DNA from: Phycisphaerae bacterium
Lineage (GTDB): Bacteria > Planctomycetota > Phycisphaerae > UBA1845 > Fen-1342
Length of the DNA: 64,000 nucleotides
Direction of reading: 5' to 3'
NCBI GenBank assembly: GCA_050115495.1
Contig: JASFQK010000002.1
Coordinates: 64,001-128,000, forward strand
Part shown: in pieces, positions 55,477-61,200 of the stretch
Layout: every line of letters begins with the position of its first letter
Numbering within the stretch: position 1 is the first letter of the stretch
Notes under the pieces: model-generated
The model's input: the letters and a program-made list of their open reading frames with translations, nothing else
Database searches by the model: none
What the model was told of the DNA's origin: nothing
Made by a program: the position numbers and the translations under genes

Positions 55477-55527
55477 GGACCGCGTTCCTTTCTGCTGCGT
55501 GGTCAACGAGCGGACAGTGTACGCGCC

Positions 55528-56409
55528 CTGGCGCAGACCCTGCAACGTGTCGCCGGCTGGTCGTTGCTATTGCTGCTGGCCGGGGGCTGCACGCTGGGGA
55601 ACGTGCCGCCGACGGTTCACGTTCGGATAACCGGGGCCCAGATTGCCACCGAGCTCGTCCAGTCCTGGCTCGAAGACGCGAAGTCCTACCGCTTCGACGT
55701 GACCCGCTCGGAGAACCCGGTCTGGTCGGACGTGGGGTTCCGGGCCCTGGCCCGCGGCGATTGCGACGTGGCCTGCACCGACCGTCCCATCGAGCGGGCG
55801 GAGTTGGAGCGTTTCGGCGACCGCGAGGTGCACGGCTACCGCGTCGCCTTCTACGGCTACGCCCTATACGTCCACCCGAGCAATCCCCTGGACAGCATCT
55901 TCGCCAGGCACATCAGCCTGCTCTTCCAGCGGAAGATCGTGGACTGGCATGAATTGGGCGGGACGCAGCTTCCCGACCTGACCGGCCCGATCATCCTGTA
56001 CGGCCCGCGCAAATGCACCCGCGGCGGCTTGGTCCTGATGCGGCAGGCGGGCATCTGGTTCGCCGAGCCGACGTGGCACGCTCTGGACAGCGACACCGAG
56101 ATTGTGGGTCGCGTGGCCGCCGACCCGCAGGCCGTCGGTTTTGCCAGCATCGGCCTGGACGAGGGCGTTCGTTACCTGGGCATCCGCATGCAACGAACGG
56201 GGACGCCGGCCTTCCCGTCGCTGGAAGAGATCGAGTCGGGGCGCTACGGCCTGGCCAAGGTCATCTACGTGTACTGCGTGGCCCCGCCGAACGAGCCTGC
56301 CGGCGCCGTGATCGAGTATCTCTTCAGCGAGCGCGGTCGCCAGGCGATCGAGCGTACGGACGTCTGGCCGATCGCGTGGGACCGGGCCGCGGTCAACACG
56401 CCACAATGA
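55528..56409 (+). CDS. PstS-like substrate-binding lipoprotein (start uncertain)
   Basis: Lipobox LAGGC; YVHPSNPLDSI...LFQRKIVDWHELGG, DPQAVGFAS, IESGRYGL and FSERGRQ resemble the PBP/PstS family. Confidence 0.7.
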   Translation: MAQTLQRVAGWSLLLLLAGGCTLGNVPPTVHVRITGAQIATELVQSWLEDAKSYRFDVTRSENPVWSDVGFRALARGDCDVACTDRPIERAELERFGDREVHGYRVAFYGYALYVHPSNPLDSIFARHISLLFQRKIVDWHELGGTQLPDLTGPIILYGPRKCTRGGLVLMRQAGIWFAEPTWHALDSDTEIVGRVAADPQAVGFASIGLDEGVRYLGIRMQRTGTPAFPSLEEIESGRYGLAKVIYVYCVAPPNEPAGAVIEYLFSERGRQAIERTDVWPIAWDRAAVNTPQ

Positions 56410-57602
56410 CCCCGCTTCGCATCCGCAGTGTCAAGATTCACCAACTGGCCATCCCGTTGCGCCTGCGCTTCGAGCACGCCGCGGCCACGCGTGATACGGC
56501 GGATCCGATCATCGTGCAGCTCGGGGCCGGCTCGCCCTATGCCCACGTGGCCGGTTTCGGCGAGACGCTGGCCCGTACGTACGTGACCGGCGAGTCGGTC
56601 GCCTCCGTGGTCGAGGACATCACCCACGTATTCGCCCCGCGGCTGGCGGCGTTCACCGCGACGAGTTTCCCCGAGGCGCTGGAGTTCATTGAGGCGCTGC
56701 CGGTGCAGCTCGGCGGCCGGATCGTCACCGCCGCCCGGACCGCCGTCGAGCTGGCCCTGCTCGACCTGGCGGGTCGCGTCTATCGACGCCGGCTGGCGGA
56801 CATCGTTGGCTGGATGGGCCTGCCCGGTTTCGGCCCGCCCGGCTGCCTGCCCACGGCCCGGTATTCGGGGGTCGTTGTGGGTCACACGCGGGCGAAGGTC
56901 GCCGGCCTGCTTCGCCTGCAACGGCTGTACGGGCTTCGTGATTTCAAGCTCAAGGTCGCGGTCGAGGGGTGGGAGGAGCGTCTTGGCTGGGCGCGGGCGG
57001 TTCTCCGGCGGGGGCTGGAGCACCGCCGACTGTCGCTGCGCGTCGATGCCAACGCGGGCTGGTCGGCGGCGGACGCCAGCGAGGCGCTGCCGATTCTCGA
57101 ACAGGGCGGCGTCTGCGCCGTGGAGCAGCCGCTCTCCGATGCCGACGACGAGCACCTGCCCTGGCTGGCCGAGCAGACCCGCTGCGCCCTGATCGTCGAC
57201 GAATCCCTGCTGACCATTCGCGACGCCGAGCGGCTCATCCACGCCGGCGGGGTCGACGTGCTGAACATCCGCATCGCCAAGAACGGCGGGTTGATGCCGG
57301 CGTTGCGCATCGCTCGATTGGCCCTGACCTCCGGGCTGGAAGTGCAGCTCGGCTGCCTGGTCGGCGAGACGAGCGTGCTTACCGCCGCCGGCATCGGCTT
57401 CCTCGAAGCCTGCCCGAAGGTGCGCTTCGTCGAGGGGGCGTTCGGCCGGCTGCTGCTCCGGCGGGACATCGTCCGTAGGCCGTTGCGGTTCGGGTATCGC
57501 GGGCGGGTTCGTCCGCTACGGGCCCCGGGGCTGGGTGTCGAGGTCGATCCGCAGGCCCTGGAGGAACTGGCGGCCGAGCGGCCCCGGGTCCTGTCCCTCT
57601 GA
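56406..57602 (+). CDS. Enolase-superfamily enzyme (MLE/dipeptide-epimerase subgroup)
   Basis: KLKV, RVDANAGW, VEQP, VDES, NIRIAKNGG, GCLVGE and PGLGV; ATGA overlap with the upstream gene. Confidence 0.85.
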   Translation: MTPLRIRSVKIHQLAIPLRLRFEHAAATRDTADPIIVQLGAGSPYAHVAGFGETLARTYVTGESVASVVEDITHVFAPRLAAFTATSFPEALEFIEALPVQLGGRIVTAARTAVELALLDLAGRVYRRRLADIVGWMGLPGFGPPGCLPTARYSGVVVGHTRAKVAGLLRLQRLYGLRDFKLKVAVEGWEERLGWARAVLRRGLEHRRLSLRVDANAGWSAADASEALPILEQGGVCAVEQPLSDADDEHLPWLAEQTRCALIVDESLLTIRDAERLIHAGGVDVLNIRIAKNGGLMPALRIARLALTSGLEVQLGCLVGETSVLTAAGIGFLEACPKVRFVEGAFGRLLLRRDIVRRPLRFGYRGRVRPLRAPGLGVEVDPQALEELAAERPRVLSL

Positions 57603-57632
57603 TCGCAGGTCCGATATGCCGCAGCCCTTGTC

Positions 57633-57661
57633 TTGGCACTGGCTTGGCCCGCCGATATGAT
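57633..57661 (+). promoter_or_regulatory. Putative sigma70 promoter giving a leaderless transcript of the secDF upstream ORF
   Basis: TTGGCA-N17-TATGAT, then 7 nt to the ATG at 57669. Confidence 0.65.
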
Positions 57662-57668
57662 GGGCGGG

Positions 57669-58166
57669 ATGCGTCGGGTTCTTGCCGACAAGCTGATCAG
57701 TATTGGTGGCGGGGTAGCGCTGCTGCTTCTTCTGGCCGTCCAGGAGAAGGTCTGCCCGCAGTTGCTCGAACCGCCCGCCGCGCCGGCGAAGTCGCGTGCG
57801 GCGACGCCGGCGACCCCCGCGCAACCGCAGACTCCCGAACAAGACGGATCCACCGAGCCCGAGCCGATTCCGCTGACGCTGACCAGCGTGCTGCCGGATG
57901 CGGTGCCGGCTCGCTGGTCCGGTCTGCCCAGCCGGGCTTCGGTGCGCGACACGGCCGGCTGGTGCAGTGGTGTCTCCGCCCGCCAGCCCCTGCTGCCGCC
58001 CGCCAGCGCGGCGGGGCCGTTTGTGGATCTCGACGCCACGCCGTTCTGGCGCTTGGCGCAGTGGTTACCTACCCCGGAAGGGACGCTGCCGCGCGGCGAT
58101 GCGCCGCCCGTGCGTGATCCCGCCCTCCACACCGTGCTTACGAGAACCGGACCGCCGCAGGCCTGA
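57669..58166 (+). CDS. Candidate translation-arrest (monitoring substrate) peptide upstream of secDF
   Basis: N-terminal basic plus hydrophobic segment, long Pro/Ala-rich linker, and C-terminal RTGPPQA-stop, 121 nt upstream of secDF. Confidence 0.6.
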   Translation: MRRVLADKLISIGGGVALLLLLAVQEKVCPQLLEPPAAPAKSRAATPATPAQPQTPEQDGSTEPEPIPLTLTSVLPDAVPARWSGLPSRASVRDTAGWCSGVSARQPLLPPASAAGPFVDLDATPFWRLAQWLPTPEGTLPRGDAPPVRDPALHTVLTRTGPPQA

Positions 58167-58287
58167 GCCGTGCGGTGTTCCCCGGCCATCTCCCGGCCGG
58201 CCGTGGCTCGCGCTGTTGCCGCAGCCGTAGCCTGAATGCTCGTAAGCAAGGTCCAAGCGACGTTGTACGTCCGTTGAGGAACCCTCT

Positions 58288-61200
58288 ATGTGGGAAAAGA
58301 ACCTGAATCAGAAGTTGCTGTTGATCGGCGTCGTGATCCTGTTCGGCGCCCTGCTCATCTACCCGCCCAGCGAGAAGCTGCGGCCCGGCCTGGACATCGC
58401 CGGCGGCGTGGCGTTGATCTTCGAAATCGACGACACCGGCTTGGAGGGCGACCCGACGCTGGCCGAGCAAATGAAGCAGTTGCTCCAGAAGCGCGTCGAC
58501 CCGAAAGGCGTGTTTGACATTGCCTGGCGCGTGCACGGGCGCAACCGCCTCGAAGTGCAGATCCCGCTGCCGCCGCCCGGCGTGACCGAGAAGCGGGAAG
58601 CCTATGCGGACAGCCTTGACAAGCTCTTCTCCGGGAACGTCACGCGCGGCGAAATGGAGACGGCTTTCGCCATGACCGGCGACGCACGCGCCGCCGAGAT
58701 CGCCCGCCTGGCCCACGGCCAGCCGCATCGCGAGCAACTGCTGACGAAGGCCGCGGAGGCTTTCGACGAGTATCAGACGGCCCTGGCCGCATATCGGCGT
58801 GGGCCGGAAGCGCCTGCCGAGAGCCAGCCGACCGAGCCCGCGGCCTCGCAGCCGACCGAGTCCGCCCCGGCCTCGCAGCCGACGAGTGCCCCGGCCAAGA
58901 CGCGCATTGATCTCGAGGACGACCTGAACGCGGCCGAGGACGACATGGACGAGGCCTACGCCGCGTTCCTGGCGACCAACCTCAACCGCGCTCGCTTCCT
59001 CGAGGTCCTGAGCATGGATCAGGGCTCGGAGATCCGTAAGAACCACCTCGCCGAGTTCTCCAAAGAGCACCCCGAGCTGCAGAAGGAGATCGAAGCGGTC
59101 GTCGTGGCACACGCCGCCTGGCGCAAGAACAGCGGTTACCTTGACGGCGCGGCCGATCTGCAGCGTTTGCTGCGTGGTGCCGGCGTGCTCGAATTCCGCA
59201 TCCTGCCCACGCACGAGCGGGAGAACCCGACCAAGTACGACGTGCAGCGCCGTCAGCTCCGGGAGCACGGCCCCCTGCCACGGGAGGGAACACTCGGTTG
59301 GTTCAAGGTGGACAACCCGCTGTCCTTCTTCGACCTGAAGACGCCGGCCGACCTGGCCGAATTCAGTCAGGCCTCCACCCGCTACGTCGTCGAGAAGCAC
59401 GGCGAGGATTACTACGTTCTGGCCAAGCTTTCCCCGGAGGACGGCCTGCTGGCCGAGAAGAAGAACTGGCAGTTGCGCTCGGTGTCGATCTCCCGTGACC
59501 AGCACGGCAGACCGTGCGTCAACTTCGCCCTGGACGTGGTTGGCGGCGGGCTGTTCGAGGAGCTCACCCGCAAGAACATCGGCAACCCGCTGTGCATTCT
59601 CGTCGACGACGTGGCCTATTCCGCCCCCAACATCCAGAGCAAGATTCGTTCGAACGGCCAGATCACCGGCGACTTCAGCCGCGAGAAGGTGACCTATCTC
59701 GCCCAGACCATGCGGGCTGGCTCGCTGCCCGCCCGTCTGCGCGAGACGCCCATCTCCGAGCGTACCATCGGCTCCAGCCTCGGTGCCACCAACCGCGACC
59801 TGGCCTTCCGCGCCGGCCTGATCGGCGTGATCGTCGTCGCCAGCTTCATGGCCATGTACTACCTCGTCTGCGGCCTGGTGGCCGACGCGGCCCTGGTGCT
59901 GAACATCGTGCTGGTCCTGGCCATCATGTCCCTCCTGCAGGCCCGCTTCACGCTGGCCGGCATCGCCGGTGTGATCCTGACCATCGGTATGAGCGTCGAC
60001 GCCAACGTGCTCATCTTCGAGCGCATGCGTGAGGAGAAGGAGCGCGGCTCATCGCTGCGACTGATGTTGAAGAACGGCTACGAGAAAGCCTTCTCGACCA
60101 TCGTCGACGCCAACATCACCACCCTGCTCACCTGCGTGATTCTCTATTACGTCGGCAGCGAAGAGATCAAGGGCTTCGGCCTGACGCTGGGCTGGGGCAT
60201 TGTGATCAGCTTGTTCACCGCCCTCTTCGTCACCCGCACGCTGTTCATGTTGCTGATCAAGTATGGGCTGCTCAAGGACATCAAGATGCTCCGCTTCATC
60301 GGCGTGCCCAAGGTTGACTGGTACGCCAAGCGGAAGTTCTTCATCCCCCTGTCGATCAGCCTCGTTGCCTTCGGCCTGTTCCTGCTCTGGGAACGCGGCT
60401 CGGATCAGTTCCTGGACGTCGAGTTCCTCGGCGGTGTCAGCGCCGAAATCGAGGTCAAGCCGCCCCAGCAGGGCGAGGAAGCGCTCGACGACGTCGAGAT
60501 CGGCGAGCTCATGGTGGAGGCCGGTGGGAAGATCGCTGCCGACGCCGACAAGCTGAACCAGGCCGAGGTGAGCTCGGTCGTCGGCGATCCAGCCGCCTTC
60601 CGAGTGCACGTTCCGGGGCTGACCGCCGCCCGCCTCGAGGCCATCCTCACCGAGCCCCTCGAGGATCAGAACGCACTTCAGCGTGGCGGCATGCGGCCCC
60701 TGCCGGACGAGCAGGCCGTCATCGTGCATATGGCGGGCAACCAGGACAGCGACTGGCTCCGCGAGTTCGTGAAGGGCGAAGTGGCTGACGTGCGGAAGGC
60801 CGGCGAGGAAATCGCCAAGGCGACGGTCGGCTCGGTCATGGAGGCCGGGTTCGAGGAGAAGGCCGGGCGCTACTGGAGCGTCACTACCACCGAGAAGAAC
60901 CGCCGGTTGGTGCAGGAAGCCCTGGAGATGGCCCTGGGCAACCGCCTCGAGCGCCAGCAGCGCATCACCTACCGTTTCCGCGGCGATTCCCAGGAGCGGC
61001 CGCTGCCCATCCTCGGCCAGCGGCTCGACAACGTCTTCCCCAACGCTCAGTTCCCCGCCGGCGTGGCCGCGGAGCCGCTCATCGAGTACCGAGACGGTGC
61101 GGCCATGTTCTTCGACGACCTCGACCCGCCGCAGAGCGTCAATCCGGAGGTGTCCGGCTCGCTGCCCGACCGCCTGCGGAACATGCGCTTGCAGCCGGGT

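Follow-up and report, generated by a model that had tools for sequence, protein, structure and literature searches.

A candidate RAPP-like secretion-monitoring arrest peptide ending in Thr-Gly-Pro-Pro upstream of secDF in a Phycisphaerae bacterium

A 64,000-nucleotide stretch of DNA from a Phycisphaerae bacterium (assembly GCA_050115495.1, contig JASFQK010000002.1, positions 64,001 to 128,000 of the forward strand; hereafter the window) carries, directly before its fused secDF gene, an upstream open reading frame (uORF) of 165 codons. From sequence comparison, we consider it likely that this uORF encodes a RAPP-like secretion-monitoring arrest peptide, which would stall the ribosome at a C-terminal Thr-Gly-Pro-Pro (TGPP) until it is pulled by the Sec machinery and would thereby tune secDF. 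The uORF very probably belongs to the general kind of Sec-monitoring arrest peptides, of which it would be a variant by the Thr in place of Arg in its motif, a VemP-like element in the middle of the chain, a leaderless promoter, and the absence of an obvious switch at the Shine-Dalgarno (SD) sequence. The conservation of the motif relative to controls, the absence of a predicted globular fold, a spacer length near the medians of VemP and SecM, the position of the uORF in the usual place of yajC, and the depletion of RGPP and RAPP in the proteome all count in favour of this reading.

Results

Identity and conservation of the upstream ORF

An earlier interpretation of the window, made from its letters only (the sequence-only reading), had proposed a 165-codon ORF upstream of and co-directional with secDF, with RTGPP at residues 159-163 (58143-58157). 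These coordinates hold, as does a gap of 121 nt to secDF (Table 1); the protein closes with RTGPPQA and the stop codon. A hexamer model trained on the genome itself gave the annotated frame a score of +17 and the five other frames scores of -47 to -175, the score per codon being low for this genome. Among eight close orthologue pairs (>60% identical; one genome occurs in two of them), the approximate dN/dS was 0.26-0.40, with changes mostly at the third codon position. By these measures the ORF is a real gene under selection. The exact protein is present as a called gene in public collections, its relatives being named just 'hypothetical protein', and no Pfam or NCBIfam family matched it. A profile search found a single copy in the genome, and of three candidates from a scan for paralogous arrest ORFs only the one before secDF was credible. 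No second full-length copy of secDF was found in the genome searched, which is 92% complete.

Seventy-two genomes of the same family were searched and DNA upstream of secDF was taken for 71, one genome (G073) being excluded as its secDF match started at query residue 89. With two secDF loci in G052, one of them identical to that of G044, this gave 72 loci, 71 of them distinct. At each locus, the most hydrophobic ORF ending within 350 nt of secDF was picked without regard to the motif and scored for [G/A]PP in its last 16 residues. Family loci had the motif in 67 of 72 cases and other loci of the order in 14 of 16, versus 4 of 94 and 0 of 18 ORFs in other frames at the same loci, two of the four control positives being the true orthologue that the motif-blind pick had overlooked. 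In the genome background, 61 of 3610 confident genes (1.7%) have such an ending. Among the five family misses, the orthologue was the second pick in G046 and G054 and lay outside the distance cut in G047; the remaining two end in NPPP (G014) and LASP (G079). After this inspection, the motif is present at 69 of 71 distinct family loci. The two misses elsewhere in the order carry yajC. The warning that Arg, Gly and Pro codons abound in GC-rich DNA does not account for the motif, which exceeds its controls; Arg159 is not the residue that is conserved.

A profile built from 54 orthologues retrieved 197 proteins at E≤0.001 among 1.84 billion representatives. Profile-based residue counts given below refer to the best 150 of these 197 matches, which include the rows of the profile itself; [G/A]PP is present in 148 of these 150, the exceptions being one fragment and one LASP protein. 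The relatives are Planctomycetota of the class Phycisphaerae, and among 201 genomes of the class the profile matched this family alone. Other families of the order possess ORFs without detectable sequence similarity that have the same layout and an x[G/A]PP end, and such ORFs occur at a further 8 of 8 order loci, one with RPPP. The proposed lineage-specific family is thus borne out, with orthologues before secDF across one Phycisphaerae family and order-mates that keep the layout. Of the features that the sequence-only reading had proposed to check in orthologues, the hydrophobic N-terminus and the terminal x[G/A]PP are conserved, but the Arg of its R/xGPP is not, and the linker is not wholly divergent. 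Odd endings in otherwise typical uORFs are NPPP at L014 (G014), LASP at L072 (G079) and RPPP at L149 (G181), and these can serve as natural mutants. The uORF at one of the two G052 loci (L060, G052:C54) is identical to that at L059 (G044:C29), whose genome belongs to another genus, and this is likely an artefact of binning.

In other orders, for which 121 genomes were sampled, 82 upstream regions examined and 74 loci counted, yajC lies within 1 kb before secDF at 63 of 74 loci and a comparable uORF, with RGPP or RAPP, at 2 of 74. The uORF studied here takes the place of this usual yajC neighbour; in the same genome, yajC is intact in a tgt-yajC arrangement on another contig. The two hydrophobic uORFs before secDF in other Phycisphaerae orders, L199 (G165) and L189 (G127), ending in RGPP and RAPP, are probably separate peptides of the RQH type discussed below; in G127, yajC also lies within 1 kb of secDF. 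Within one family of another order (f12; loci L157, L167, L168, L178, L181, L184, L191, L192, L194, L195, L197, L199 and L201), the yajC neighbour is left at 2 of 13 secDF loci and a uORF has been gained at 1 of 13.

The C-terminal motif and its register

Across the family, the predicted arrest segment follows the pattern DPA[LIVF]xTx[ILV]x[RP]T[GA]PP. All 150 aligned rows retain the second Pro of the motif, and the second motif position is Gly in 137 and Ala in 12 of 150, with Pro in two odd loci. The residue before [G/A]PP (n=148) is mostly Thr (109), followed by Leu (12), His (7), Ile and Asn (5 each), Arg, Ala and Gln (2 each) and four singles. An Ile, Leu or Val stands four residues before the Gly in 146 of 148 proteins, and the tail after the two prolines is exactly two residues long in 116 of 148. 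Across orthologues every synonymous codon of the motif is used, so selection acts on the peptide. The column of Arg159, by comparison, holds Arg in 77 of 148 (Pro in 36; Ile, Glu and Ala in 7 each), and Arg in 36 and Pro in 19 of 68 genome orthologues. Family members that have experimentally tested motifs in the same register (RGPP 2, HGPP 5, HAPP 2, QGPP 2) align Pro on Pro with TGPP, and the first motif residue is accordingly Arg, Gln or His in 11 of 148 members and Thr160 in the window. Because the second Pro is kept, Arg159 varies and these members align in this way, the invariant core is, on the alignment, x-[G/A]-P-P in a RAPP-like register with Thr in the Arg slot. The earlier assignment of GPP to the RAPP/RGPP class stands for core and register and falls short at the first residue. 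In the sister families of the order (n=22), the motifs are HAPP (8), QAPP (4), HGPP, CGPP and LAPP (2 each) and four singles, one of which, the VAPP of G030, lies upstream in a protein that has HAPP as its last motif.

In mutagenesis of ApdA and ApdP, Gly, Ala and Pro at the second motif position support arrest (PMC12992588). The set found at this position here, with Pro rare, is the same, which counts for arrest. Since RGPP and RAPP occur in the proteome of the genome at 0.10 and 0.12 of expectation, respectively, the ribosomes of the Phycisphaerae host are probably sensitive to this class of motif.

Targeting segment, linker and mid-chain element

The basic and hydrophobic N-terminus recognized in the sequence-only reading is confirmed by the family consensus (RxxxGLGLLLLLAAQxKxCPW), a 19-residue hydropathy peak of 1.88 and a helix predicted by AlphaFold2 over residues 2-25 (pLDDT 86-95 over residues 1-20). 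Beyond this first helix AlphaFold2 gave no globular fold (pTM 0.28). Export by the Tat route was considered and rejected, the twin-arginine pattern being found in 0 of 152 proteins.

The linker is Pro/Ala-rich as claimed (25 Pro and 19 Ala in residues 25-158), but it is not featureless, for it holds a conserved element with the pattern L-x3-LPD-x3-PRW. Of the residues of this element, Arg82 is shared by 64 of the 67 genome orthologues and by 146 of 150 profile matches, P76 by 133 and D77 by 129 of 150; besides LPD..PRW, Cys29 and Trp127 are conserved. The spacer from the end of the hydrophobic segment (residue 24) to Pro162 is 138 residues long. Among the profile matches, the distance from Arg82 to Pro162 has a median of 80, a standard deviation of 3.2 and a maximum of 88, whereas that from K27 at the signal end to Arg82 has a standard deviation of 8.6 and a maximum of 96; in the genome-orthologue set the two standard deviations are 6.3 and 10.1. 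This contrast between a narrow spacing to the motif and a variable one to the N-terminus is only suggestive, because the N-terminal part is of low complexity and prone to insertions and deletions.

Promoter and predicted leaderless start

The near-consensus promoter TTGGCA-17-TATGAT noticed before the uORF is upheld as the sole promoter-like site in 56000-59000, where shuffled sequences would give 0.1, and its leaderless-type placement is conserved in orthologues. The uORF ATG (57669) lies 7 nt 3' of the -10 box; two further in-frame ATGs (57657 and 57660) fall within the -10 box and a TTG within the -35 box. A TAnnnT box occurs 12-17 nt 5' of the start at 61 of 67 family loci and 12 of 14 order loci, counts that are partly circular, as orthologue starts were picked with a preference for such a box (under this rule G065 had no start). 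A -35 TTG accompanies the box at 56 of the 73 box-bearing loci, with spacers of 17 nt (40), 16 nt (11) or 18 nt (5), and is missing at 17. Across 2549 ATG genes of the genome, each offset has about 9 TAnnnT boxes, rising to 37-42 at -12/-13, a background far too low for the orthologue count to be due to chance. A predicted transcription start at or next to the uORF ATG, giving a leaderless mRNA, is therefore well supported by these comparisons. The same genome-wide peak suggests that some 3-4% of ATG genes are leaderless.

The gap between the uORF and secDF

No promoter or terminator was called in the 121-nt gap of the window, and an internal secDF promoter, named in the sequence-only reading as a possible refutation, was likewise rejected for the orthologous gaps (TTG..TAnnnT in 0 of 82; bare TAnnnT in 23). 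A terminator or attenuator was also discarded, since a loose hairpin-plus-U pattern occurs in 50 of 80 orthologous gaps, in 36.5 of them after shuffling and in 41 of 70 control gaps of the same genome, which is no enrichment. In the window, 58135-58144 can pair with 58239-58248 (10 bp) and the fold is stable (z -3.5); this helix is not shared by orthologues and showed no gating of the SD sequence in the calculation. Pairing between arrest zone and gap was dismissed as a general feature, having a mean z of -0.54 over 82 loci (24 below -1, 5 above +1) and no fixed position.

Table 1. Positions of the features described at the secDF locus of the window
Feature	Position	Strand	Basis
Upstream ORF, 165 aa, candidate Sec/SecDF-monitoring arrest peptide	57669..58166	+	Sole positive-scoring frame; dN/dS; one genome copy
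Predicted arrest segment, residues 150-163; TGPP at 58146-58157; predicted P-site codon Pro162 (58152-58154)	58116..58157	+	Orthologue comparison
Mid-chain element, residues 69-83: short hydrophobic stretch, Pro-Asp, Arg82	57873..57917	+	Orthologue conservation
Basic then hydrophobic N-terminus, residues 1-25, candidate signal peptide or signal anchor	57669..57743	+	Consensus, hydropathy, predicted helix
Sigma-70-type promoter, TTGGCA (57633-57638), 17 nt, TATGAT (57656-57661)	57633..57661	+	
Gap between uORF and secDF, 121 nt, with secDF SD sequence GAGGA at 58276-58280	58167..58287	+	
Fused secDF, 1239 aa	58288..62007	+	Pfam/NCBIfam searches

Neighbouring and other Sec-related genes

A phosphate-binding-protein-like gene and an enolase-superfamily gene (55498-57602) lie 5' of the uORF promoter; as the latter is a neighbour at just 5 of the 72 family loci, it lies outside the unit. 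The first periplasmic part of SecDF contains a low-complexity insert with three (A/E)SQPT-type repeats (window 58810-58900). Contigs from one public RNA run (X1) are letter-identical to the window at 57683-57861, 57994-58144, 58389-58539 and 59226-59550, with none at 56400-57600, and one contig of a second run (X2) covers 58134-58292 with 4 differences; these contigs give no strand, start site, level or joint transcript, may stem from DNA in the libraries, and were not used as evidence.

Elsewhere in the genome (G000:C9:62958-67554; L115, L117), secA follows efp after 46 nt, an interval without an upstream ORF. The tip loop of this EF-P reads SKGNWRS, the usual tip residue being Lys or Arg, and the predicted SecA (1328 aa) starts with a hydrophobic, membrane-like extension. 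A second EF-P-family gene of about 186 aa (G000:C6:159134-159295; L116) has a different tip loop. At G000:C16:83254-85980, two tandem 443-aa genes with lipoprotein-like N-termini match the periplasmic part of SecD alone (query residues 16-496), their membrane domain being unmatched, and adjoin three tandem paralogues of another gene.

Discussion

The uORF shares most with the secDF branch of the RQH peptides (uDF_RQH; Fujiwara 2024, PMC10987492), which are likewise encoded by unannotated ORFs before secDF, combine a targeting segment, a long spacer and a RAPP-like end, and are limited in spread to an order; moreover, HAPP and QAPP, tested in that study, are motifs of the sister families here. 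What was asked of candidates there is largely found here, namely a small unannotated ORF directly before secDF, an N-terminal signal or transmembrane segment by hydropathy, consensus and predicted helix, a spacer exceeding 30 residues (138), a C-terminal motif conserved in at least three genomes of one order (67/72 and 14/16 loci), and a motif, TGPP, on the query list. However, Arg, Gln or His as first motif residue, which gives the class its name and was needed for arrest in the tested members, gives way to Thr in the window, as in 109 of the 148 family members. Because Thr leads the motif, we file the uORF as a variant and not as a plain member of this class. In addition, uDF_RQH_Enterobacterales has an SD-hiding stem-loop, and none was found here by equilibrium folding.

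The suggestion of an undescribed motif variant needs qualification, as TGPP is a bioinformatic query motif in Fujiwara 2024 (PMC10987492), although it is absent from the tested peptides in the accessible text. It scores 0 in their secA table and at least 7 in their yidC table, where the two shown lie inside ApcA proteins. Their TGPP group probably sits in the secDF table, and the odds that it represents the Phycisphaerae lineage studied here are roughly even. A literature search, with most subscription papers outside it, returned Fujiwara 2024 as the sole relevant paper for ribosome arrest at TGPP and none for an arrest peptide in Phycisphaerae. TGPP is not mentioned in the main text of the Fujiwara preprint, GPP was not found in the accessible text of the STALL-seq paper, and the terms searched in the accessible parts of the LudP preprint and PMC7897499 gave no planctomycetes or leaderless mRNA.

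Like ApdA and ApdP (PMC7897499, PMC10951233, PMC12992588), the uORF precedes secDF and has an x-[A/G]-P-P core, with the same residues tolerated in second place and a hydrophobic or Ile residue shortly upstream. In contrast to it, those peptides carry the irreplaceable Arg, which stacks on 23S rRNA nucleotide 2504, precede a presumed secondary secDF2 and not the only full-length secDF found, and belong with their R-[A/G]-P-P to Actinomycetota and Alphaproteobacteria, not Planctomycetota. The planctomycete peptide uA_LPPP (Phycisphaerales, UBA1161, WQYP01; PMC10987492) has an Arg-less x-x-P-P motif and stalls at its third residue, and Leu in its first slot occurs here as LAPP and LGPP (12 of 148); it differs in having PPP (LPPP or xPPP) within its last 15 residues and in lying before secA, a gene that in the genome studied is preceded by efp and no uORF. 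SecM of E. coli (RAGP) also combines a signal, a long spacer and a Pro-dependent end, and controls a single-copy Sec gene, as the uORF putatively does. Unlike the uORF, it precedes secA; its FxxxxWIxxxxGIRAGP is absent here and its Arg not conserved.

In VemP of Vibrio, a short hydrophobic segment (78-81) acts together with Arg85 to pause the chain in SecY, so that release depends on SecDF (PMC11470409). VemP also precedes secDF, has about 160 residues, and places its hydrophobic segment and conserved Arg far before the stall site, with 71 residues from Arg85 to P-site codon 156 as compared to 80 from Arg82 to Pro162 here. By this analogy, residues 69-83 are a candidate SecY-pause element; the likeness is one of layout alone, and the segment and Arg are 3 residues apart in VemP and 6 here. 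Spacer lengths are close as well, 138 residues here and medians of 133 for VemP and 131.5 for long SecM. In contrast to the uORF, VemP lacks a Pro-Pro arrest motif, acts on a second, salt-adaptive SecDF, and depends on PpiD/YfgM (PMC11470409).

Several observations weigh against the proposed arrest peptide. All 19 substitutions of the motif Arg abolish arrest in ApdA and ApdP (PMC12992588), this Arg makes nearly all contacts between motif and 23S rRNA (PMC10951233), and in E. coli a Thr that precedes PPP suppresses stalling (PMC4176338). The proteome shows no depletion of TGPP (0.72 of expectation; 0.82 under a Markov model). The orthologues are kin and not independent observations, so that their counts show conservation and not repeated origin. 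PF13624 (the SurA/PpiD N-terminus, a PpiD-type domain being needed for VemP release) was not found in the 92%-complete genome, in which the matches to PF09976 are weak and generic. On the other hand, stalling does occur at HAPP, QAPP and LPPP, which have no Arg (PMC10987492), and the conserved Asp-Pro-Ala, hydrophobic, Thr and Ile/Leu/Val positions suggest that upstream residues would carry any arrest.

The coupling to secDF meets similar difficulties. In known monitoring substrates such as SecM, MifM, VemP and uDF_RQH_Enterobacterales, the stalled ribosome opens a stem-loop that hides the SD sequence (PMC7897499), and a SecM-like unmasking was implied in the sequence-only reading. In a comparison of the energy needed to open the secDF start region with and without masking of the stall site, made by equilibrium folding of GC-rich RNA at 77 loci, masking lowered the energy by >1 kcal/mol in 12 and raised it by >1 in 7 (window, +0.3). 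Orthologue start regions are no more closed than controls (median 8.1 vs 9.6 kcal/mol); the 11.3 kcal/mol of the window is reached by one third of 90 control genes, and 12 aligned gaps gave no consensus RNA structure. Unmasking thus finds no support in these calculations. Coupling may possibly proceed by kinetic folding, protection from Rho or nucleases, a protein-aided switch, or holding of the mRNA at the translocon, the last of which has been proposed for SecM.

Other explanations of the conserved end have to be considered. The Pro-Pro may mark a pause relieved by EF-P, in which case the leader would couple secDF to elongation speed or EF-P status and not to pulling force. GPP and APP are di-proline contexts, TGPP is tolerated in the proteome, missing EF-P inflated the in vitro arrest of HAPP, QAPP and LPPP peptides (PMC10987492), and the genome has the efp with an unusual tip loop directly before secA. 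As a mere pause would leave unexplained the conserved Ile/Leu/Val, Thr and Asp-Pro-Ala, the targeting segment, the mid-chain Arg at a set distance and the two-residue tail, we regard this as unlikely. Quite unlikely is arrest in the SecM register, with R159-T160-G161-P162 as the equivalent of RAGP and Gly in the P site, which the sequence-only reading had favoured by likening RTGP to the RxGP core. It is true that Arg is the commonest residue at position 159 and that RAGP can support ApdP arrest in vivo (PMC12992588), but half of the members lack this Arg, the second Pro is invariant, Ala replaces Gly in 12, and Thr is not among the residues supporting arrest at the ApdA/ApdP Ala position (PMC12992588); the RxGP reading is not supported.

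The uORF might instead encode an ordinary small exported or membrane-anchored protein, e.g., a SecDF accessory factor with a conserved binding motif at its C-terminus. Purifying selection along the whole gene, the conserved Cys29, LPD..PRW and Trp127, and the occupation of the place held by yajC in other orders would suit such a protein. However, no fold is predicted past the first helix, yajC is intact after tgt, and sister families without sequence similarity keep the layout and x[G/A]PP, often as the tested HAPP or QAPP, and this explanation appears very unlikely to us.

If the uORF is indeed a monitoring arrest peptide, a leaderless uORF-secDF mRNA would begin near 57669 and the N-terminus would direct the nascent chain to SecYEG. 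The ribosome would then stall at TGPP, as we infer from the register, the P site holding Pro162 and the A site Pro163-tRNA. Because Thr160 occupies the place of the ApdA/ApdP Arg, the arrest must rely on contacts upstream in the tunnel, presumably by Leu157, Thr155, Leu153 and Asp-Pro-Ala, and would probably be weaker than that at RGPP. The hydrophobic stretch and Arg82 may pause the chain in SecY, so that release would need late-stage pulling driven by SecDF, as in VemP. A longer stall would give more SecDF, the coupling route being the weakest step because no conserved SD-hiding hairpin was found. A bolder form of this reading, in which a family-wide peptide combines an Arg-independent stall, with Thr in the 23S pocket position and its strength drawn from conserved residues facing the tunnel, an independently evolved VemP-type pause element that senses SecDF pulling, and control of the only secDF of the cell from a leaderless mRNA without SD unmasking, is a tentative and rather doubtful proposition.

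Systems of this kind are already known and such peptides are often found, and if the TGPP rows of Fujiwara 2024 are this lineage, the family is already listed there, though not among the tested peptides in the accessible text. Its importance lies in the motif, since saturation mutagenesis and cryo-EM made the RAPP Arg irreplaceable and no residue weakens polyproline stalling more than Thr. With its TGPP and its natural variants that have R, H, Q, L, I or N in the first slot, a family of some 150-200 sequences amounts to an allelic series in one scaffold, with which one can ask why x-[G/A]-P-P stalls and what sets the strength of the arrest. The mid-chain Arg element likewise offers a direct test of whether the SecDF sensing of VemP is a general design. 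If true, this would be the first proposed feedback control of SecDF in this planctomycete lineage.

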